From the NCBI GenBank assembly GCA_039027855.1, contig JBCCJI010000014.1, positions 33,492 through 97,491 on the forward strand: DNA of 64,000 bases, written 5' to 3'. The notes under the pieces are model-generated. The model was not told the origin of the DNA. It was given only the letters and a program-made list of their open reading frames with translations, and made no database searches. The DNA is from Pseudomonadota bacterium. GTDB lineage: Bacteria > Pseudomonadota > Alphaproteobacteria > Rhodobacterales > Rhodobacteraceae. Below are positions 37,966 through 51,016 of this stretch, one piece after another; within the stretch, counting starts at the first letter, position 1, and every line of letters begins with the position of its first letter. The translations under genes and the position numbers were made by a program.

Positions 37966-38446
37966 TGTGGATAACCTGGTGGATTAAACTGCGGACAACG
38001 GGCTCGCGGTATGCAGTGGCGGCGGTAAGATATTGTCCACACTGATGAACGACAGTGCTCAGGAAGGGTCTTCCTTAACGTTTGATTGCGGTTTTGGACG
38101 GGTTTCACCCGCGATATCAGGCGCCAGAACATGGCGCCGCGTGGCCGTGCAAAGCCGTCTGGTGTGAGATGGCTCTGCGCAGGATGGTTAAGGTTGCAGC
38201 CTGCGCCTTTATGAAATGATTTTTATCACTTAAAATCAGTATTTTATGGGAAATTCTTTATGACACTGTCCCAAAAAATTACAGTTTCCGACAGGTGGAG
38301 ATGACTCTCGCTTTGATCATCTCAGCGTGTCGCAGTTCCGATAATCACCGTCGCCATTAACTTATGGAGACATCAGATGGTTTCGCCGTTCGTTTTACAC
38401 CGGGACGACAGCTCGATGACACCGACTGAGACGCTACTGTGGACAA
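37966..38446. promoter_or_regulatory. Cluster of DnaA-box-like 9-mers with an AT-rich tract and an IHF-like site
   Basis: TGTGGATAA 37966 (perfect); GGTGGATTA 37978; TGCGGACAA 37990; TTGTCCACA 38033; TGTGGACAA 38438; AT-rich about 38205-38285; AATCAGTATTTTA 38234. Confidence 0.5.
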
Positions 38447-38715
38447 CCGCAGCCTGCCGCTCGGGAAGGGCCACGTCTTCTGACAAAGCGGCCCACGCCG
38501 AAGCGGGATCAGAGAGGTAGCAGCGGAGATGCCTTTGGTGCGGCGCAGCGCTCTGGATCGAGGCGTGTCCTAGCGGCAACAAGCGCGGCGACGCCGTCAC
38601 GGTGAGGTCGCGCTCGGACGGTGGGAGGCGGCAGCCAGGCGCCCGGTCTGAGGCACCCGCTAGGGCACTCACTCAGGCACGCGCTGGGACACGCGCGATC
38701 TTGGAGCGGAAGCTC

Positions 38716-38741
38716 GAATCGCATTAGAACAAATTAAGAAC
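38716..38741 (+). promoter_or_regulatory. LexA (SOS) box upstream of imuA
   Basis: GAAC-aaattaa-GAAC (38727-38741), the alphaproteobacterial consensus, extended by an in-phase GAAT-N7 half-site at 38716. Confidence 0.9.
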
Positions 38742-39549: not shown

Positions 39550-39777
39550 GGCTGGCCGATGGAGCGACTTGGGGCGCGCGCCGGGAGACAGGCTGAGAAG
39601 CGTGCCCGCGCAGCTGCACTGGACAGCGCGCCGGACAGCGCGCCGCCGCTGCAACAGCGCCGCACCGCCCTGCCCGACCCCGCCGGTCGCGCCATCTGGC
39701 CCCGCATGGCCAAGCGACAACCCCATACCGGCATCCAGAACCGCACCGAGCCCGCAACCCCGCCCAAAGCGAAAGCG

Positions 39778-41703
39778 ATGCCGCGCCGCCTGATCGTCGC
39801 AGCCCTGCCCTATCTCGCTGCGGAACATGCGCTGCGGCGCGAGGGGTTGACCGGGCTCGTCGAGCCCTTCGCGCTGATCGAGGCGCAGGGCAGCGCACGC
39901 CGCGTTGTTTCGACCAATGCCCGCGCTGCGGAGCTGGGGCTGATGGCTGGCATTGGGCTAGCCGATGCGCGGGCGCTGGTGCCGGGTCTCGTCACCCGCA
40001 CTGCGGCGCCCGAGCGGCTGAGGGTATTTTGGCGCGCGCTGGAGCGCTGGGCGGGGCGGTTCTCACCCATCGTGGGGCGCGATCGCGGCCTCACCCCCAT
40101 GCCCCGCCTGCAGGCCGGGAGCGCGCAGACCACCCCGCGGCCCACCCCGCGACCAGGGGACAGCCGGCGGGCGCGCGCGCCAAAGCCCAACGCCGCGGCT
40201 GGCCCCGAGGGTGGCGCGCTGGTGATCGACGCGAGCGGTGCCGCGCATCTCTTCGGCGGCGAGGCCGCGATGGTCACGGCGGTGGTCGACGGTCTGGCCG
40301 AGCTTGGCCTCACCGCCCGCGCCGCCATGGCCGATACCCGCGGCGCCGCCTGGGCGGTCGCGCATTTCACCGATGATGCAGTGCGCGTAGTCCCCCCGGG
40401 CGCGACACGGCGCGCGCTCGAGACGCTACCGCCGCGGGCGCTCCGCCTCGATGCCAAGACGGTGGAGGGGCTGGAGGCGGTCGGCCTCACCCGGCTGGGC
40501 GATATGGCGGGCCTGCCCCGCGGCCAGCTTGCCCGCCGTTTCGGGCTGGAGACCGTGCGGCGGCTGGACCAGGCGCTGGGGCTGGAGCCGGAGCCCGTGG
40601 CGCCGGCACGCGCCGCACCGCATTTCGCGACCCGGCTGACGCTGGCCGAGCCCATCGGCCTGACCTCTGACGTGACCGCCGGGCTCGAGCGGCTGCTGGA
40701 GAGCCTCTGCGCCCGGCTGGAGGCGGCCGAGCAAGGGGCGCGGGCGCTCAGGCTGAGCGTTCGCCGGGTCGACGGGGCGGATCAGTCAGTGGCGATCACC
40801 CTTGCGCGGCCGATGCGCGACCCGATGCGCCTGCGCGCGCTCTTCGCCCCCAAGATCGACGAGTTGGACGCGGGTTTCGGCATCGACGCGCTGCGCCTGG
40901 CTGCGACCGCGACAGAGCCGATGGCACCAGTCCAGTCCAGTGGACAGGCCGTTGGAGGGGCCCGTGTGCAGGCCAGTGTGCAGGCCCGTATGCAGGCCGA
41001 TGGCGGCTCGGCCGGACAGGCCGTCGGCCCATCGGGCGGCAGGGCGCGCGCCGTGGCGGGGGCCAGCGCCCCCTCGGCCGCCCATGCCGAGGCGGGCGAG
41101 AGCGCACGGCTTGCCGACCTGATGAGCCGGATCGGCAACCGCATCGGCTTCGAGAACCTGCAGCGCCTTGTGCCGGCCGAGAGCCATATCCCCGAGCGCG
41201 CCTTCTCCATCGCCGCTGCGGGCTTCAGCGAACCCGGCGACTGGCGCGCGGCCGGGGCGGTGGCGACCCCCGCCTTGGCGACACCGGCCGTCGGGACCGG
41301 CCTGCCCCGCCCCCTGGTCCTGTTCGCACCAGAGCCGGTGCTCCAGGCCCCAGGGCCCGAGGCGATCACACCCCGCGCCGCCGAACCCGGCTGGCCCCCC
41401 GATGCGGCGGGCCCCACCCGATCAACGACCGGATCGCAGGCCGGATCATTGGCGCCATCACCCGCGGGTGGGCTGCAGGTCCCGCCACCAAAGCGCTTTC
41501 GCTGGCGCGGCCGGGTCCTGCGTCTCGCCTGCGCCGAAGGGCCGGAACGGATCGCCCCGGAATGGTGGTGGGACGACCCGGCCTGGCGGAGCGGCCCGCG
41601 CGACTACTGGCGCGTCGCCTGCCACGAGGGCCCGCGGCTTTGGCTGTTCCATACCCCCGCAGCGCCCCTGCCCGCCTGGTCGGTCCATGGCATCTTCGCC
41701 TAA
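39778..41703 (+). CDS. imuB: ImuB (inactive Y-family polymerase)
   Basis: LADARAL, RFSPIVG, IDASGAAHLFGGE, EGPERIAPEWW, RDYWRV, HGIFA; start may be up to about 220 nt further upstream. Confidence 0.9.
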   Translation: MPRRLIVAALPYLAAEHALRREGLTGLVEPFALIEAQGSARRVVSTNARAAELGLMAGIGLADARALVPGLVTRTAAPERLRVFWRALERWAGRFSPIVGRDRGLTPMPRLQAGSAQTTPRPTPRPGDSRRARAPKPNAAAGPEGGALVIDASGAAHLFGGEAAMVTAVVDGLAELGLTARAAMADTRGAAWAVAHFTDDAVRVVPPGATRRALETLPPRALRLDAKTVEGLEAVGLTRLGDMAGLPRGQLARRFGLETVRRLDQALGLEPEPVAPARAAPHFATRLTLAEPIGLTSDVTAGLERLLESLCARLEAAEQGARALRLSVRRVDGADQSVAITLARPMRDPMRLRALFAPKIDELDAGFGIDALRLAATATEPMAPVQSSGQAVGGARVQASVQARMQADGGSAGQAVGPSGGRARAVAGASAPSAAHAEAGESARLADLMSRIGNRIGFENLQRLVPAESHIPERAFSIAAAGFSEPGDWRAAGAVATPALATPAVGTGLPRPLVLFAPEPVLQAPGPEAITPRAAEPGWPPDAAGPTRSTTGSQAGSLAPSPAGGLQVPPPKRFRWRGRVLRLACAEGPERIAPEWWWDDPAWRSGPRDYWRVACHEGPRLWLFHTPAAPLPAWSVHGIFA

Positions 41704-44091: not shown

Positions 44092-44106
44092 GAACATTTA
44101 TCGAAC
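44092..44106 (+). promoter_or_regulatory. Second LexA box directly abutting the dnaE2 start codon
   Basis: GAAC-atttatc-GAAC followed immediately by ATG 44107. Confidence 0.85.
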
Positions 44107-47100
44107 ATGGCTGTTGAGCTCGCCGCCACGACCAATTTCACCTTCCTCACCGGGGCCTCCCACCCCGAGGAGATGGTGGAGCGTGCCGCCGAGCTTGGCC
44201 TCGACGCCATCGCCATCGCCGACCGGATGAGCCTTGCGGGCGTGGTGCGCGCCCATGTGCGCCTGAAGGAGATCGCGCGCGAGGAGGTTGCGCGGAAGGC
44301 CCCCAACATCACCGGGCGCGACGTGGTCGACCACGCCAAACGCATCCGCGCACTCAGCCGGACCGACCCGTCCTCGCGGCTGGAGGAGCCGCTGCCCGAG
44401 GGGCTGGAACAGGCACCCGAGAGCTATCGGAGCCTGCCGAAGCTGATCATCGGCAGCCGCCTCGCCTTTACCGACAGCGCGGTCGAGGTGGTGGCGCTGG
44501 CGCCCGACCGGGCGGCCTATGCCGGGCTCTCGCGCCTCCTGACGCTCGGCAAGCGGCGCGCGGCCAAGGGGGAATGCCATCTGCAGATCGCCGATCTGGA
44601 GGCAGAGGACACCCCCTGGCATCGCCGGCTGATCGGGCTGATCGTCCTGCCCGACCCGCTTGCCCCGCTCGACCCCGATCGGGCGGGCACCGAGGCGCCG
44701 GCCCCGCGCGGGCCACGGGCTGGGGCGCCCGCCGCCGGCGCCGGTGCGATCCTGTCAGACGCCGCGCGGCTTGCGCGCCGGTTTGGCCGGGCAGCGGTGC
44801 TGGCAGCGCCCCGCTATGACGGGCGCGACGATGCCCGCTTTGCCGCGCTGGCCGCCATGGCCGCACGGCTCGGCCTGCCGCTCGCCGCCAGCGCCGAGCC
44901 GATGATGCACCGGGGCGCGCGCCGCCGCCTCGCCGATATCCTGACCTGCATCCGCGAGCGGCTGACCGTCGACACCTTGGGCACTCGCGCCCTGCCCAAT
45001 GCCGAGCGGCACCTGCGCAGCCCCGAGACACTCGCCCGGCTGTTCGCCGACCATCCGGCCGCGCTGATCGAAGCGGCTGAGATCGCCGCCGCCTCCAGCT
45101 TCAGCCTGGACGAGCTGGCCTACGAATACCCCGACGAGATCGTGGCAGGCGAGGATCCGCAGACCCGGCTTGAACGGCTGGCAGCCGAGGGGCTCGCCTG
45201 GCGCTATCCCGACGGCGTGCCGGACCTCGCGCAGAGCCTCGTCGACCGCGAGCTCACGCTCATCGGCAAGCTTGGCTATGCGCCCTATTTCCTGACCGTC
45301 CGCGATATCGTGGCCTTTGCGCGATCGCGCGGCATCCTGGTGCAGGGCCGCGGCTCAGCGGCGAACTCGGCCACCTGCTACGCGCTCGGCATCACCGAGA
45401 TCGGGCCCGAGCGGATCACCATGGTGTTCGAGCGGTTCGTCAGCGAGGCGCGCAACGAGCCGCCCGATATCGACGTCGATTTCGAGCATGAGCGCCGCGA
45501 GGAGGTGATCCAGCACATCTACGAGACCTATGGCCGCGAACGCGCCGGCCTGACGGCGACGGTCATCCATTTCCGCTCCCGCGCCGCGATCCGCGAGGTC
45601 GGCCGCGCGATGGGGCTGAGCGAAGACGTCACCTCGGCGCTATCCGGTCAGATCTGGCACTGGTCGCGCGAGGCGATCCACGGCGAGCGGTTGCGCGAGA
45701 TCGGCCTCGACCCGGCCGACCGGCGGCTGATGCAGACGCTGGCGCTGGTCGAGCAGATCATCGGCTTTCCCCGCCATCTCAGCCAGCATGTGGGCGGCTT
45801 CGTCATCACCGCGGGCCGGCTCGATGAGCTTTGCCCCATCGAGAACGCGGCGATGGAGGAGCGCACCGTCATCGAGTGGGACAAGGACGATATCGACGCG
45901 CTGGGTATCCTGAAGGTCGATATCCTGTCGCTCGGCATGCTGACCTGCATCCGCAAGGCCTTCGACCTGATCGCCGACCATAGCGGCACGCGCTACGTGC
46001 TCGACACCATCCCGCGCGAGGATCCGGCGGTCTATGACATGCTCTGCGCGGCCGACAGCCTGGGTGTCTTCCAGGTGGAATCACGCGCGCAGATGAACTT
46101 CCTGCCGCGCATGCGCCCGCGCACCTTCTACGACCTGGTGATCGAGGTCGCGATCGTGCGCCCAGGCCCGATCCAGGGCGATATGGTCCACCCCTATATC
46201 CGCCGCCGCTCGGGCGAGGAGCCGGTGTCGTTTCCCTCCGAGGAACTGGGCGAGGTGCTGGGCAAGACGCTCGGCGTGCCGCTGTTTCAGGAACAGGCCA
46301 TGCGCATCGCCATCGTCGCGGCCGGTTTCACGCCGGACGAGGCCGACCGGCTGCGCCGCGCCCTTGCCACCTTCCGCCGCTCGGGCACGATCCACACCTT
46401 TCGAGAGCGGTTCATCGAGGGGATGCTGGCCCGCGGCTATGAGACCGAGTTTGCCGAGCGCTGTTTCGCCCAGATCGAGGGGTTTGGCGAATACGGCTTC
46501 CCCGAGAGCCACGCGGCCTCCTTCGCGCTGCTGGTCTATGCCTCGGCCTGGCTGAAGCGCCACCACGCCGCGGCCTTCGCCTGCGCGCTGCTGAACAGCC
46601 AGCCGATGGGCTTCTACGCCCCGGCGCAGATCGTGCGCGATGCGCGCGAGCACGGCGTCGAGGTGCGCCCGGTCTCGGTGAATGACAGCTATTGGGATTG
46701 CACGCTGGAACGCGCCCCATCCTCGGCCGGCGGGCTGGCGCTCCGCCTCGGCTTTCGCATGGTCAAGGGGCTGAAGGAGGAGGACGGGCAGTGGATCGCG
46801 GCCGCCCGCGGCAACGGCTACCCGGATGTGGAGAGCCTGTGGCGCCGCGCGGGCATCGGGCGTGCGCAGATCAGCGTGCTGGCCAGGGCCGATGCCTTCG
46901 CCGCCGGCGGGGTCACAGCACCCTCCCGCGATGATGACGACGGCCCCCGCACCATCCCGCGACGCGAGGCGCTTTGGCAGGCGCGCGCGCTCTCGGGCGA
47001 CCGACCCCTGCCGCTGTTCGCCGAGGGCGAGGGCCGGCGCGAGGGCGCCGTGCGCCTGCCCGAGGCCAGCCTCGGCGAGGAAGTGGTCGACGATTACCGC

Positions 47101-47166
47101 ACGCTCCGCCTCAGCCTGCGTGCCCACCCCGTGGCGCTGCTCCGCGACCGGCTGATGGAGGAGTGA
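44107..47166 (+). CDS. dnaE2: Error-prone DNA polymerase DnaE2/ImuC, N-terminal part (PHP, polymerase, HhH); lacks the OB fold and SRDFH tail
   Basis: TTNFTFLTGASHPEE, GRGSAANS, PPDIDVDFE, HLSQHVGG, KVDILSLGML, YGFPESHAASFA; ends RAHPVALLRDRLMEE-stop. Confidence 0.93.
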   Translation: MAVELAATTNFTFLTGASHPEEMVERAAELGLDAIAIADRMSLAGVVRAHVRLKEIAREEVARKAPNITGRDVVDHAKRIRALSRTDPSSRLEEPLPEGLEQAPESYRSLPKLIIGSRLAFTDSAVEVVALAPDRAAYAGLSRLLTLGKRRAAKGECHLQIADLEAEDTPWHRRLIGLIVLPDPLAPLDPDRAGTEAPAPRGPRAGAPAAGAGAILSDAARLARRFGRAAVLAAPRYDGRDDARFAALAAMAARLGLPLAASAEPMMHRGARRRLADILTCIRERLTVDTLGTRALPNAERHLRSPETLARLFADHPAALIEAAEIAAASSFSLDELAYEYPDEIVAGEDPQTRLERLAAEGLAWRYPDGVPDLAQSLVDRELTLIGKLGYAPYFLTVRDIVAFARSRGILVQGRGSAANSATCYALGITEIGPERITMVFERFVSEARNEPPDIDVDFEHERREEVIQHIYETYGRERAGLTATVIHFRSRAAIREVGRAMGLSEDVTSALSGQIWHWSREAIHGERLREIGLDPADRRLMQTLALVEQIIGFPRHLSQHVGGFVITAGRLDELCPIENAAMEERTVIEWDKDDIDALGILKVDILSLGMLTCIRKAFDLIADHSGTRYVLDTIPREDPAVYDMLCAADSLGVFQVESRAQMNFLPRMRPRTFYDLVIEVAIVRPGPIQGDMVHPYIRRRSGEEPVSFPSEELGEVLGKTLGVPLFQEQAMRIAIVAAGFTPDEADRLRRALATFRRSGTIHTFRERFIEGMLARGYETEFAERCFAQIEGFGEYGFPESHAASFALLVYASAWLKRHHAAAFACALLNSQPMGFYAPAQIVRDAREHGVEVRPVSVNDSYWDCTLERAPSSAGGLALRLGFRMVKGLKEEDGQWIAAARGNGYPDVESLWRRAGIGRAQISVLARADAFAAGGVTAPSRDDDDGPRTIPRREALWQARALSGDRPLPLFAEGEGRREGAVRLPEASLGEEVVDDYRTLRLSLRAHPVALLRDRLMEE

Positions 47167-47172
47167 GCCGTG

Positions 47173-48345
47173 CTAGTCGATGGCCAGCGCGATGATCTGT
47201 GTGCTGCGAGTGCCGAAGGCTGCGAAGTTATCGTCGGAGATGACGATCAGCGTCTCGCGCCCGTCGGGCAAAAGCGGCCCCGTGGCCAGCGCCTCCAGAT
47301 TGTCGGGCGCGATGCCGAGATCGGCGAAATCCAGCAGCAGCGTCTTGGCCATCGGGGTGGCTGCCGCGGCGCCAGTCTGGTCGATCGCCGTCGCGGGCGT
47401 GGGGTCGACATGGAACAGGCGCACGGTGAACCCGACCCCGGGCGACCCCGCCGAGAACGAGCGCTCCAGCGCCAGCAGCGCGCCATCGGGGCGGGCCAAG
47501 AGCTCCACCAAACCGCTGTCGGTGTAGTTCCAGGCGGGCCACGGCGCCTGCGCCACCGGCTCGACATCATAGGCGAATTCACCCTCGAGCCGCGCCGTGC
47601 CGCCGGCAAGGCGATAGCGCAGCACGCGCACGCGCGGCCCGGCCTCAAGCGTCGCATCCGGGCCGTCCTGCACCAGCGCGCTCTCATGCGCGGCCCAGAG
47701 CGTGGCGCCGTCCGGGCCGAGGGTGAGGCTCTCGAACCCCTTGTTGACGCGCACGCCCTGCCCCGCGCCCGGCATGTGGTGGGCGGGAACATCCAGCGCG
47801 GCGGTCATGGTGAGATCATCAAAGCCCATGATCGCGGGACGGCCCGCGCTGTCGCGCTCGGACGCGATCCAGAGCCGGCCATCGCGGTCGATGACGATCC
47901 CCTCGGGATCAGGCTCCAAAGCATCCAGCGTGGCGCCCTCGGCGGTCAACAGCGGATGGGTGGCGGTGACGGTGACATCGCCCGCATCCAGGCTGCCATC
48001 GGCAAGATCTATCGACAGCGCATAGAGCCGCGGCGTCCCGTCCGGCCCGCCTTCGCGATCATCGGAGACGACGAGATACCCGCCGTCGGGCAAGGCGACA
48101 GCGCCCGAAAGCCCGCCGATGGTGGTGCCCTGGAAACGCGTGCCAGACGGGATCTCCACCATGCCGAGGAAGCTCAGCCGCAGCGGCGCAGCGTCGGGCT
48201 CGGCTGCGTGGGGAGCGTGCGCAAGGCTGCAGACGATCAACGCCGCAGCCGCACCAAGATGGCGGGCCTTAGTGATCGCGGCGTGACGTCGAATGCTTTG
48301 GCGCACGGCCTTTCCCCGACAGTGTCGCTCACTGGGACACGGCAT
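47173..48345 (-). CDS. Esterase-like activity of phytase family protein (secreted beta-propeller)
   Basis: GGLSG, VVSDD, DPEGI, NKGFESLT, DNLEAL, LIVISDDNF; signal peptide; start uncertain. Confidence 0.8.
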   Translation of the reverse strand: MPCPSERHCRGKAVRQSIRRHAAITKARHLGAAAALIVCSLAHAPHAAEPDAAPLRLSFLGMVEIPSGTRFQGTTIGGLSGAVALPDGGYLVVSDDREGGPDGTPRLYALSIDLADGSLDAGDVTVTATHPLLTAEGATLDALEPDPEGIVIDRDGRLWIASERDSAGRPAIMGFDDLTMTAALDVPAHHMPGAGQGVRVNKGFESLTLGPDGATLWAAHESALVQDGPDATLEAGPRVRVLRYRLAGGTARLEGEFAYDVEPVAQAPWPAWNYTDSGLVELLARPDGALLALERSFSAGSPGVGFTVRLFHVDPTPATAIDQTGAAAATPMAKTLLLDFADLGIAPDNLEALATGPLLPDGRETLIVISDDNFAAFGTRSTQIIALAID

Positions 48346-48466
48346 GCGCGGCCCCGGTCGGCGGTAGCAGGCGATTGCTGCTCGCTCAACCGCGGGTCCA
48401 AGATGGCGCGCCCGGACTGTCGCGACGTGTTCGATCCGCTATGCTGGTGCGACAAGGAGAGCGCCC

Positions 48467-49486
48467 ATGACCGACACGCCATCCCATCGCCTCTCGCTGG
48501 CGCGTATCCGCGCCGCGGCAGAGACGGTGCACCCGGTCTTTCGCGACACTCCACAGGTCGAGGCACCTGCGCTGTCGGGCGTGCTCGGCTGCATCGCGGT
48601 GATGAAGGTCGAGACGCTGAACCCGGTGCGCTGTTTCAAGGGGCGCGGGGCCACCTGGCTGATGGCCGAGGCGGCGCGAACCGACGACACCCGGTCGATG
48701 GTGACGGCAAGCGTCGGCAATTTCGGCCAGGCGATGGCCTGGGCCGCGCGCGCGCAGGGCCGCTCGCTCACGATCTTTGCGGCCGAGACGGCGAGCCCGC
48801 TGAAGATCGGGCTGATGCGGGCGCTCGGCGCCGAGATCCGGCTTGAGGGCGCGGATTTTGACGCGGCCAAGGCGGCGGCGCGCGCCCATGCCGAGGCGAC
48901 CGGCGCGCGGCTGGTCGAGGACGGCGCGGATATCGAGACGGCCGAGGGCGCAGGCACCATGGGGCTGGAACTGGCGGCGATGGACCCGCCGCTCGACGCG
49001 GTGCTCGTCCCGCTCGGTAACGGTGCGATGGTGACGGGGCTCGGCGCGGCGCTGAAGGCACTGTCGCCCGGCACCGAGGTGATCGCCGTGCAGGCCGCGG
49101 GCGCGCCGGCCATGACGCTCTCCTGGCGCGAGGGGCGGGCGATCGAGACGCCGGGCGTCGACACCATCGCCGACGGCATCGCCATCCGGGTGCCCATCGC
49201 CGAGGCGGTCGCCGATACCCGCGCGCTGGTCGACGACATGGTGCTGGTCGAGGATTTGGACACCATCGCCGGCATGGCCGCGTTTGAGCGGCATGCCGGC
49301 CTGGTGGTCGAGCCCGCGGCGGGCATCGCGGCGGGCGCTGTGCTGGCCGATCCCGCGCGCTTTGCCGGGCGGCGCGTGGGCCTGATCGTCTGCGGCGCCA
49401 ATGTCACGCCCGAGCAGCGGCGCGGCTGGTTCGACATGGCCGATGCCTGGCATGCCCAGCCCGCATTGGGAGGAGGACAGGCATGA
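48467..49486 (+). CDS. PLP-dependent threonine/serine dehydratase-like enzyme (fold type II)
   Basis: KVETLNPVRCFKGRGA, ASVGNFGQA, VPLGNGAM, TIADGIA, VEPAAG, VCGAN. Confidence 0.85.
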   Translation: MTDTPSHRLSLARIRAAAETVHPVFRDTPQVEAPALSGVLGCIAVMKVETLNPVRCFKGRGATWLMAEAARTDDTRSMVTASVGNFGQAMAWAARAQGRSLTIFAAETASPLKIGLMRALGAEIRLEGADFDAAKAAARAHAEATGARLVEDGADIETAEGAGTMGLELAAMDPPLDAVLVPLGNGAMVTGLGAALKALSPGTEVIAVQAAGAPAMTLSWREGRAIETPGVDTIADGIAIRVPIAEAVADTRALVDDMVLVEDLDTIAGMAAFERHAGLVVEPAAGIAAGAVLADPARFAGRRVGLIVCGANVTPEQRRGWFDMADAWHAQPALGGGQA

Positions 49487-50049
49487 GCAACGCCGATCAC
49501 CGCGACGTGCCGCCCCTGCCGAGGCCCGAAGCGGCGACCGGGCCGGATGGGCGGCCCATACCCCCACGGCGCGGGCGGCGCGGCGCCCGTGACCTCATCA
49601 CCTGCGCCGCGCTGGCCGAGGCGCCCGATGGAACCATGGCAACCGTGGCGGGCCTCATCATCACGCGTCAGCGGCCGGGCACCGCCTCGGGTGTCATCTT
49701 CCTGACGCTGGAGGACGAGACCGGCGTCGCCAATGTCGTGGTCTGGCCCAAGACCTATGAGCGGTTTCGCCGCGCCGTCATCGCCGGGCGGCTGGTGCGC
49801 GTGCGCGGGCGGCTGCAGCGCGAAGGCATGGTGCGCCACCTGATCGCCTGGACCATCGAGGACATGTCGCATCTTCTCGATCAGCTCGGGATAGAGGGGC
49901 ATCTGTCGAGCGAGCGCGGCGACGAGGGCCGACGTCCGATCCCGCCTGAGAAGCGCAAGAAGCCGCGCCATACGACCATGGCCAAGCAACGCGCCCGCCA
50001 CCCGCGCGAGGAGGCCAAGACGCTCTTCCCCTCGCGCGATTTCCACTGA
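49483..50049 (+). CDS. dnaE2: Stand-alone DnaE2 C-terminal part: OB fold plus SRDFH motif
   Basis: VAGLIITRQRPGTASGVIFLTLEDETGVANVVVW, RGRLQREG, ends FPSRDFH; strong SD GGAGGAGG; ATGA overlap with the upstream gene. Confidence 0.88.
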   Translation: MSNADHRDVPPLPRPEAATGPDGRPIPPRRGRRGARDLITCAALAEAPDGTMATVAGLIITRQRPGTASGVIFLTLEDETGVANVVVWPKTYERFRRAVIAGRLVRVRGRLQREGMVRHLIAWTIEDMSHLLDQLGIEGHLSSERGDEGRRPIPPEKRKKPRHTTMAKQRARHPREEAKTLFPSRDFH

Positions 50050-50251
50050 TCGCCGGTCCGCCCGCCCGGTTCGACTGGCCCGACTGGCCCGAATGCCAAC
50101 AACCGCGCGCCGCCTCGTCCCTTGCGAGGCCGGGCCATGGCCGATGGCCATCATTACCCGCGCCGTGCCAATCTCACCCATCACCGGGCGGCAAAGCCCG
50201 GGACACATATCAAGCGCCCGGACGGTATCGGGCGTCAGGGGAGGGATGGCG

Positions 50252-51016
50252 ATGACTGGACGGCTCGCAGGGAAGACAGCGCTGATCACCGGCGCCGCAT
50301 CCGGGTTCGGACGCGCGATGGCCGAACGCTTCGCGGCGGAGGGATCGGCGGTCATGGTCCTCGACCTCGACCCGACCGGTGCCGCGGGCGTCGCCGAGGC
50401 CATCGGTGCCAATGGCGGGCGCGCGATCTCGGCTGGCGCCGATGTCACCGACCGCGCGGCGATGGAGGCGGCGATCACCGAGACCGAGAGCACGCTCGGC
50501 CCGGTCGATATCGTGGTCAACAATGCCGGGTTCGCCCACCGCAACCGCCCGCTGATGGACGTCGACGAGGCCGAGTTCGACCGCTGCTTCGATGTCAACG
50601 TCAAGGCGATCTACCACGCGACGCAGCTCATGGTGCCGCGCTGGCGCGCCCAGGGCGGTGGCGTGATGCTCAATATCGGGTCGACCGCCGGCATCCGCCC
50701 GCGTCCGGGGCTCAGCTGGTACAACGCCTCGAAAGGGGCGGCGAACCTCGTCAGCCGTTCGCTGGCGGCTGAACTGGCGCCGGACAACATCCGCGTGAAT
50801 GCGCTCGCCCCGGTGATCGGGGTGACGGGCATGCTGGAAACATTCATGGGCGTCCCCGACACGCCCGAGAACCGCGCCCGTTTCATCGCGACGATCCCGA
50901 TGGGCCGGATGAGCGAGCCTGAGGATATCGCCAACGCAGCCCTCTATCTCTGCTCGGACGAGGCGTCGTTCATCACCGGCGTGGTGATGGAAGTGGACGG
51001 CGGCCGGACGGTCTGA
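50252..51016 (+). CDS. Classical SDR oxidoreductase (FabG-like)
   Basis: TGAASGFG, VNNAG, YNASK, NIRVNAL, VDGG. Confidence 0.9.
   Translation: MTGRLAGKTALITGAASGFGRAMAERFAAEGSAVMVLDLDPTGAAGVAEAIGANGGRAISAGADVTDRAAMEAAITETESTLGPVDIVVNNAGFAHRNRPLMDVDEAEFDRCFDVNVKAIYHATQLMVPRWRAQGGGVMLNIGSTAGIRPRPGLSWYNASKGAANLVSRSLAAELAPDNIRVNALAPVIGVTGMLETFMGVPDTPENRARFIATIPMGRMSEPEDIANAALYLCSDEASFITGVVMEVDGGRTV

Follow-up and report, generated by a model that had tools for sequence, protein, structure and literature searches.

In a stretch of 64,000 nucleotides from a member of the Rhodobacteraceae (assembly GCA_039027855.1, contig JBCCJI010000014.1; hereafter the window), the error-prone DNA polymerase DnaE2 is encoded in two parts. 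The core gene belongs to an SOS mutagenesis cassette (imuA, imuB, dnaE2) and stops in the loop between the helix-hairpin-helix (HhH) and OB domains. The OB domain and a C-terminal SRDFH-type peptide are not on the core chain; they are encoded by a separate, intact open reading frame (ORF) of 188 amino acids (aa) that follows 2.3 kb downstream, the gap being 2316 bp. Core and tail together make up a complete DnaE2 from two genes. We think it probable that a cassette dnaE2 underwent fission in the HhH-OB loop and that the two products act as a two-chain DnaE2. A preliminary description of this DNA had proposed a natural, intein-free split into core and OB/SRDFH genes, which is borne out here, both parts being kept by selection.

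Two reading frames for one DnaE2

The core ORF ends ...LRAHPVALLRDRLMEE-stop, in the loop preceding the OB domain. Pfam recognizes PHP (PF02811), DNA_pol3_alpha (PF07733), the finger domain (PF17657) and HHH_6 (PF14579) in this ORF and finds no OB domain in it. On the NCBIfam model NF004225 (error-prone DNA polymerase, 1047 positions) the core occupies positions 7–939 with 1222.8 bits (cut-off 939) and the tail ORF positions 926–1047, so that the two ORFs tile the model. An alignment that includes fused relatives shows the core ending 5 residues past the HPxALLRxRL motif and the tail resuming at LITCAALAEAPDG, matching the fused linker, with conserved residues neither missing nor duplicated across the two ORFs. 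ORF limits, Pfam and alignment thus agree with the earlier placement of the core end at the HhH-OB linker. The catalytic motifs PDIDVDFEH and LKVDILSLGM are present in the core translation, PDIDVDFEH and LKVDILSLG sitting in columns that are invariant among 66 fused relatives. No second dnaE2 copy was found within the 64-kb window.

An AlphaFold2 (AF2) model of the fused relative P0127 (predicted template modelling score, pTM, 0.75) places the break in loop 1012–1020, between two short helices and just before the first OB strand. The last 40 residues of this model, including the conserved peptide, have a predicted local distance difference test score (pLDDT) below 50 and are undocked on the monomer. 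Searched by sequence against solved structures, the tail led to the OB domain of aspartyl-tRNA synthetase and the C-terminal part of the core to DnaE1, a search that gave no usable domain boundary for either; Foldseek of the fused model against the PDB returned only DnaE1 and PolC, and no DnaE2 or mutasome entry.

The tail protein matches the OB family PF01336 at residues 54–122 (E 1.7e-12, above the gathering score), and its AF2 model contains five OB strands (52–63, 72–77, 82–87, 104–114 and 117–127; pLDDT 91–96). From this match and the barrel topology the OB fold is predicted to be a nucleic-acid-binding domain. A low-confidence spacer leads from the fold to the C-terminal peptide, and the ORF ends LFPSRDFH. 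Eight residues are invariant in 51 stand-alone tails (H173, P174, R175, F182, S184, R185, D186 and F187); the F, S, R, D and F of the peptide are invariant in the 66 fused DnaE2 as well. In the AF2 monomer models of both the tail and the fused relative the peptide has low confidence and is undocked. A peptide predicted to be undocked and yet invariant is what a short partner-binding motif would typically look like.

The new Pro/Arg-rich N-terminus of the tail, estimated earlier at about 36 aa, measures 37 aa (pLDDT 61–79). Its start (ATGAGCAAC..., consensus MSN.DH.D.PPLPR) is homologous in the window and in the related loci L001 and L002, which have the first ~14 aa (MSNADHRDVPPLPR) in common, and more loosely in L005. 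The size of this extension is close to that of the C-intein of Npu DnaE, which might suggest the split intein of cyanobacterial DnaE and a covalent rejoining of the two products, by such an intein or by recoding. We attach next to no probability to this. The core continues for only 5 residues past the junction, leaving no room for an N-intein, and Pfam recognizes no Hint/intein domain; the extension is Pro/Arg-rich, ends ...GARD-LITC rather than in Asn and is reduced to ~10 aa in L004–L008; and one of the genes separating the halves is on the opposite strand.

The two genes between core and tail are intact and unrelated to dnaE2, as had been described, and the convergent stops of the core (TGA, 47164–66) and of the first of them, a phytase-like gene (CTA, 47173–75), are 6 bp apart. 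The second, a dehydratase-like gene, shares an ATGA with the tail, the tail ATG overlapping its stop. The strong Shine–Dalgarno sequence that had been noted before the tail is also present. Pfam finds no transposase or intein (Hint) domain in the core, tail and intervening ORFs, and a search for flanking repeats that would mark a mobile insert gave short repeats at chance level only, in agreement with the reported lack of insertion sequence (IS) scars and inteins.

The window arrangement is not an assembly artefact. An independent contig of 5204 bp from one marine metagenome run covers positions 46594–50400 with zero differences and an even depth of ~31, thus spanning the core 3′ end to the tail; in a second sample each of the three junctions (core/phytase-like, phytase-like/dehydratase-like, dehydratase-like/tail) is bridged by contigs. 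A joining of unrelated pieces during assembly or binning might be feared, as the assembly is metagenome-derived and a related bin (JBCCDG01, isolate P01_A01_bin.79) is mixed: the latter holds two split loci, L002 and L004, at 19.6x and 102x coverage and must therefore combine two organisms. However, with every junction confirmed in this way, and the same architecture in other species and on one long-read contig, such an artefact has a negligible probability. Metagenome contigs show a word depth that climbs from ~30 to 120–1340 over positions 45347–46672, where the best conserved of the polymerase motifs lie; many related dnaE-type genes of the community appear to share those words.

The split among Rhodobacterales

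Relatives were drawn from a collection with one genome per species. Nine loci of related uncultured marine alphaproteobacteria have a stand-alone tail that is 72–84% identical to the window tail. In L002, L003, L004, L006, L007, L008 and L010 a truncated core lies 1.35–1.9 kb upstream of the tail, and the halves are separated by a gene for a regulator with HTH_11 and WYL domains, a YafY/PafBC-like architecture (L002:4473-5159, L006:9177-9881, L010:1842-2543). Upstream of the regulator gene, these loci have ~0.55 kb after the core stop in which no gene is recognisable. Beside the tail, L005 has a phytase-like gene alone, and L001, like the window, a phytase-like and a dehydratase-like gene. The phytase-like orthologues adjoin the tail in L001 (65% identical) and L005 (56%), the dehydratase-like orthologue occurs in L001 only (83%), and in both loci the core is not adjacent to the phytase-like gene. 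Where the core would adjoin it, L001 has an unrelated stretch of lower G+C (L001:1-743) and L005 a second phytase-like fragment (L005:1-291). Downstream of the tail there is an AMP-binding (acyl-CoA-synthetase-like) gene in the relatives and a short-chain dehydrogenase gene in the window.

With flanks differing between L001, L005, the other relatives and the window, the neighbourhood of the tail has been repeatedly rearranged, and the intervening genes have been exchanged over time between branches. The homology of the tails ends directly 5′ of the ATG. Since the start of the tail is shared while upstream homology stops at the start codon, the data fit a single split in an ancestor, after which the intervening genes turned over. 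The split predates the divergence of at least nine species.

The ratio of nonsynonymous to synonymous substitution rates (dN/dS) was determined by the Nei-Gojobori method on codon alignments, the tail region being aa 38–188. Among split members the tail has a median dN/dS of 0.21 (range 0.03–0.36, at dS 0.5–1.0), and the core a median of 0.14 (0.05–0.21). Pairwise values between fused relatives are 0.28–0.51 for the tail region and 0.25–0.37 for the core. Neither part is evolving neutrally; both are under purifying selection that is not weaker than in the fused relatives. This bears directly on the idea that the locus is a dnaE2 inactivated by the insertion of foreign genes and that both remnants are decaying pseudogenes. 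The reading frame is indeed interrupted by two unrelated genes, and a genuine disruption is known: at L316:2847-6609 a 322-aa dnaE2 fragment is followed by a 610-aa DDE transposase gene and then by a 202-aa tail whose start precedes the HPxxLL helix. In the window lineage, however, both ORFs are intact in nine species at the dN/dS values just given, the catalytic motifs and the C-terminal peptide are retained, the conserved start codon of the tail has a strong ribosome-binding site, and Pfam detects no transposase at the window locus. The pseudogene reading was rejected in view of the purifying selection on both halves and the intact motifs; we consider it most improbable. The 202-aa tails of the P0099 type were in turn rejected as clean splits, their locus (L316) being an IS-disrupted dnaE2.

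A survey for truncated dnaE2 and stand-alone OB genes, as the preliminary description had proposed, found many of both in the Rhodobacterales. In the protein collection 34 of the 114 closest full-length relatives are OB-less, ending at most 45 residues from the HPxALLR motif. On a neighbour-joining tree OB-less DnaE2 occurs in at least four places, namely the window clade, a 'clade B', a single Thermohalobaculum genome and a large 'clade A'. A further sample, of 80 dnaE2 loci from Rhodobacterales, contains 43 OB-less ones among the matches listed. About a third to half of the sampled Rhodobacterales DnaE2 genes are thus OB-less and end at the same loop. The question of whether the split is lineage-wide, left undecided at first, can be answered in the affirmative by the nine relatives and by equivalent splits in at least four related clades. 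That DnaE2 is normally one chain, as stated earlier, holds as a general rule, from which the Rhodobacterales depart.

OB-less DnaE2 is also found in cultured organisms, among them Ruegeria marisrubri, Thalassococcus profundi, Shimia sp. SK013, Maritimibacter alkaliphilus HTCC2654, Phaeobacter sp. CECT 5382, two Palleronia species, Cereibacter johrii, Pseudooceanicola atlanticus and Roseovarius aquimarinus. The clade B tails are 142-aa proteins starting M(R/Q)TLTCAEL. On a long-read contig of 1.3 Mb from this clade, imuB and the core, which lies beside imuB and behind a LexA box, are at ~1.15 Mb and the intact tail is at ~0.13 Mb, more than 1 Mb away. In Thermohalobaculum the contig has an aspartyl/asparaginyl hydroxylase gene between core and tail. 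Clade A has a stand-alone OB protein of ~120–180 aa that is 61–70% identical to the OB domain of the window.

An OB-less core and a stand-alone OB gene are present in the same assembly in at least five cases among the matches listed (L137+L211, L195+L312, P0233+L022, P0133+P0007 and P0153+P0084), and it is on these five pairs, not on a census, that the co-occurrence of the two rests. Roseovarius aquimarinus and Oceanomicrobium pacificus are the cultured organisms with such pairs. The core alone was seen in Ruegeria marisrubri, Phaeobacter sp. CECT 5382, Maritimibacter alkaliphilus HTCC2654 and Cereibacter johrii; in a genome scan with an alignment of clade A cores, the named clade A isolates were not among the matches listed. 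A family of stand-alone OB proteins derived from the DnaE2 OB domain, without SRDFH, occurs in Rhodobacterales (L021–L025 and 67 of L196–L315), with Mameliella alba, Tritonibacter litoralis, Ruegeria marina, Roseovarius salinarum, Pelagimonas varians and Roseivivax halodurans among the cultured carriers.

Bootstrapped neighbour-joining of the core sequences groups the window, P0124 (fused), L009 (fused) and the L002 group (split) with 99% support; 81% of the replicates place L009 with the L002 group, and the split members alone form a clade in 0.2%. In the tail tree, made from a short alignment, L009 (JBCBMO010000005.1) is nested among split tails with weak support. The fused dnaE2 genes L009 and P0124 nest inside the split clade in both core and tail trees. 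Because L009 is nested among split genes, which share the start codon of the tail, the sequences suggest that it arose by re-fusion, independent fissions being the alternative. A parsimony count on the wider tree finds five fissions about as good as one fission with six fusions, and both events appear to recur at the HhH-OB loop.

Cassette, LexA control and proposed mode of action

The coordinates of the cassette and of the features around the split are collected in Table 1. The LexA site of alphaproteobacteria is GAAC-N7-GAAC, or GTTC-N7-GTTC on the opposite strand (PMC3323433). The imuA-like product is 40–44% identical to those of genes preceding imuB in related cassettes, and ImuB is 34–39% identical to its counterparts there. 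A pentapeptide-repeat gene is likewise found upstream of dnaE2 in L002, L006, L008 and L009 and, given this place conserved across the clade, may be an extra member of the SOS cassette. The 765-aa protein is hydrophobic in its N-terminal half, followed by ~25 pentapeptide repeats (the family of Qnr and MfpA). The dehydratase-like protein matches NCBIfam dehydratase families, every one of them below its cut-off. Between the upstream gene and the LexA boxes of imuA, positions 38000–38500 have a G+C content of 0.52, against ~0.70 around, and long A/T runs.

Table 1. Features of the mutagenesis cassette and of the two dnaE2 parts (window coordinates)
Feature	Position	Strand	Remarks
LexA box, one mismatch	38716-38730		overlaps the exact imuA box
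LexA box GAACAAATTAAGAAC	38727-38741	+	exact GAAC-N7-GAAC; 20 bp 5′ of imuA
imuA-like gene, 262 aa	38761-39549	+	ORF; weak NCBIfam ImuA match
imuB (inactive Y-family polymerase homologue)	39559-41703	+	Pfam IMS, IMS_C; start codon uncertain
Pentapeptide-repeat protein gene, 765 aa	41749-44046	+	PF00805, E 6e-44; between imuB and dnaE2
Second LexA box GAACATTTATCGAAC	44092-44106	+	exact match; directly abuts dnaE2 ATG
dnaE2 core, 1019 aa	44107-47166	+	PHP, palm/thumb, fingers, HhH; no OB
Phytase-like esterase gene, 390 aa	47173-48345	-	PF13449, E 1e-71; convergent with core
Pyridoxal phosphate (PLP)-dependent threonine/serine-dehydratase-like gene, 339 aa	48467-49486	+	PF00291, E 8e-64
Shine–Dalgarno AGGAGG	49471-49476	+	6 nt 5′ of tail ATG, from sequence
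Tail gene, 188 aa	49483-50049	+	OB domain and C-terminal peptide
Tail N-terminal extension, aa 1-37	49483-49593	+	Pro/Arg-rich
Tail OB fold, aa 41-133	49603-49881	+	PF01336; AF2 pLDDT 91-96
Tail C-terminal peptide ARHPREEAKTLFPSRDFH, then stop	49993-50049	+	conserved

As in the window, the core is preceded by a LexA box in L002, L006, L008 and L009, at 15–18 bp from its start. Outside the loci of the phytase type, an exact box also lies 17–148 bp 5′ of the stand-alone tail gene or its aligned part (L002, L003, L004, L006, L007, L008, L010, L035, L036 and L115); in the loci with a WYL regulator it is located between the regulator gene and the tail. Among stand-alone OB genes of the TAKG type, identified with a DNA pattern for RQRPGTAKGVIF, an exact LexA box is found in the 400 bp upstream of 63 out of 67, and in the corresponding 400 bp of fused genes in 0 of 32 cases. 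The background chance is 0.013 per 400 bp of these loci. The 67 genes are related, so that their boxes count as a family trait and not as 63 independent events. With LexA boxes at most stand-alone OB genes, the detached OB gene would normally belong to the LexA regulon, like the cassette.

We propose the following mechanism. The break maps to a predicted surface loop that joins the HhH (beta-binding) domain to the OB domain. The core gene has stayed in the LexA-controlled ImuA-ImuB-DnaE2 cassette, with the OB domain and the C-terminal peptide encoded as a separate 188-aa protein, and both products would cooperate at the lesion as a two-chain DnaE2. We infer from the sequences that they would assemble physically and non-covalently. 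The OB domain of C-family polymerases contacts the single-stranded template, as is established for DnaE1, and that of the tail may hold the template in the same manner. The disordered C-terminal peptide might be a short linear motif whose binding to the core or to some other component of the mutasome recruits the small chain. In most split lineages LexA cleavage would switch on both genes together. In the window lineage the LexA box of the tail would have been lost and the tail is probably read through from the dehydratase-like gene, so that it would be made ahead of time and the core alone induced by damage. Such read-through, and with it expression independent of damage, is suggested by the overlap of the tail start with the dehydratase-like stop. 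Consensus scans for promoters and terminators between the halves gave no match, but are uninformative in DNA of 70% G+C.

Several observations weigh against a two-chain polymerase. Upstream of the tail in the window, L001 and L005 there is no LexA box, even with one mismatch allowed, and co-regulation with the core is therefore not evident in the window lineage. In clade A, the largest split clade, the OB protein ends soon after the fold, without the SRDFH peptide, which therefore is not a universal tether. Both termini created by the split, the C-terminus of the core and the N-terminus of the tail, are variable, without any sign of an acquired docking element; any association would thus have to use pre-existing contacts, a third partner or DNA. 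None of the RNA runs checked contains the window stretch. Finally, OB-less C-family polymerases do exist, Timinskas et al. (2014; PMC3919608) mentioning some DnaE2 and many DnaE3 without an OB domain.

The core could accordingly be supposed to work alone as an OB-less DnaE2, and the OB protein to be an autonomous damage-response factor that forms no complex with it, for example an SOS-induced single-strand-binding or recruiting protein. The OB proteins of clade A keep this alternative alive, and it would also accommodate a core and a tail more than 1 Mb apart or, as in the window lineage, a tail uncoupled from LexA and joined to a metabolic gene. On the other hand, the C-terminal peptide, which is specific to DnaE2, is invariant in the tails of the window clade and of clade B, OB-less cores and stand-alone OB genes co-occur in at least five assemblies, and most tails have the same LexA control as the cassette. 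An autonomous OB protein is a serious possibility but, in our judgement, an unlikely one, and we retain the two-chain DnaE2 as the preferred explanation.

The initial suggestion that the small subunit could act as an on/off factor finds little support, since most tails of the split lineages have a LexA box and would be induced together with the core. In the window the tail is without such a box and the LexA-controlled part, as judged from the boxes, would be the core, which speaks against the small subunit as a damage-controlled switch.

Known systems and biological meaning

Damage-induced mutagenesis, which in mycobacteria gives rise to drug-resistance mutations among others, is driven by DnaE2. 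The window cassette has the order of the canonical ImuA-ImuB-DnaE2 (ImuC) mutasome of Mycobacterium, Caulobacter, Myxococcus and Pseudomonas, with LexA boxes in front; as there, its polymerase core scores above the NCBIfam cut-off, and the OB domain and SRDFH peptide are both in the genome. It differs in that the polymerase comes from two genes, broken at the HhH-OB loop, that the cassette includes a pentapeptide-repeat gene and a LexA box for dnaE2 itself, and that the tail would be expressed from a different transcription unit.

In cyanobacterial DnaE the break lies inside the polymerase, not before the OB domain. That enzyme, in Synechocystis and Nostoc, is likewise a C-family catalytic subunit made from two genes, with a split intein (PMC5054071, PMC3919608). 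It is a replicative DnaE1 rejoined by protein trans-splicing, whereas the window DnaE2 is without an intein. Several DnaE2 sequences lacking the OB domain are noted in the accessible passages of Timinskas et al. (2014; PMC3919608), and the cores of the window type appear to be of this kind. According to the same passages, fragmented sequences were rebuilt where intact relatives existed, and a separate, conserved, LexA-controlled OB gene is not reported in them. A 2026 survey of bacterial polymerases (PMC12926913) classifies DnaE2 systems and describes 'a split ImuB', iPolY plus ImuB-C, in DnaE2X systems; in its accessible parts no split DnaE2 is mentioned. As with the split described here, iPolY and ImuB-C are a mutasome component made as two proteins that is canonically fused, but ImuB is not a polymerase and other lineages are concerned. 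Published AlphaFold models place the contacts between DnaE2 and ImuB at the PHP domain and the HhH region, and the accessible section on these contacts says nothing on the OB domain or the tail (PMC12926913).

We found no description of a split DnaE2 in a literature search from which most subscription papers were absent, so that its absence is not proven; nor are roles of the DnaE2 OB domain and its invariant C-terminal peptide established in the accessible literature, which is also silent on the earlier statement that mycobacterial mutasome function requires the C-terminal motif. A split with a persisting OB gene appears to be new, OB-less DnaE2 being known already, and is a robust and unusually widespread observation. 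Cores are annotated as 'error-prone DNA polymerase' and tails as 'OB-fold nucleic acid binding domain-containing protein' or 'partial', and under these separate names the pairing is invisible in current annotation, which matters in practice when genomes are annotated or polymerase repertoires surveyed.

A natural split that has been kept for so long means that the module of OB domain and tail can come as a separate chain. The natural splits are ready-made separation-of-function alleles, and as the pairs also occur in cultured Rhodobacterales, the role of the detached part can be tested where genetic tools exist. By lineage, the detached OB gene would have as its control its own LexA box, a neighbouring regulator of the PafBC/YafY type (helix-turn-helix plus WYL) or, in the window, an overlap with a metabolic gene. 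It is tempting to see in the HhH-OB loop a reversible point of fission and fusion and in the OB module a separately regulated subunit of the mutasome that acts in trans; we offer this tentatively, as a rather doubtful proposition. If true, the supply of the OB subunit could set when and where the error-prone polymerase is competent.

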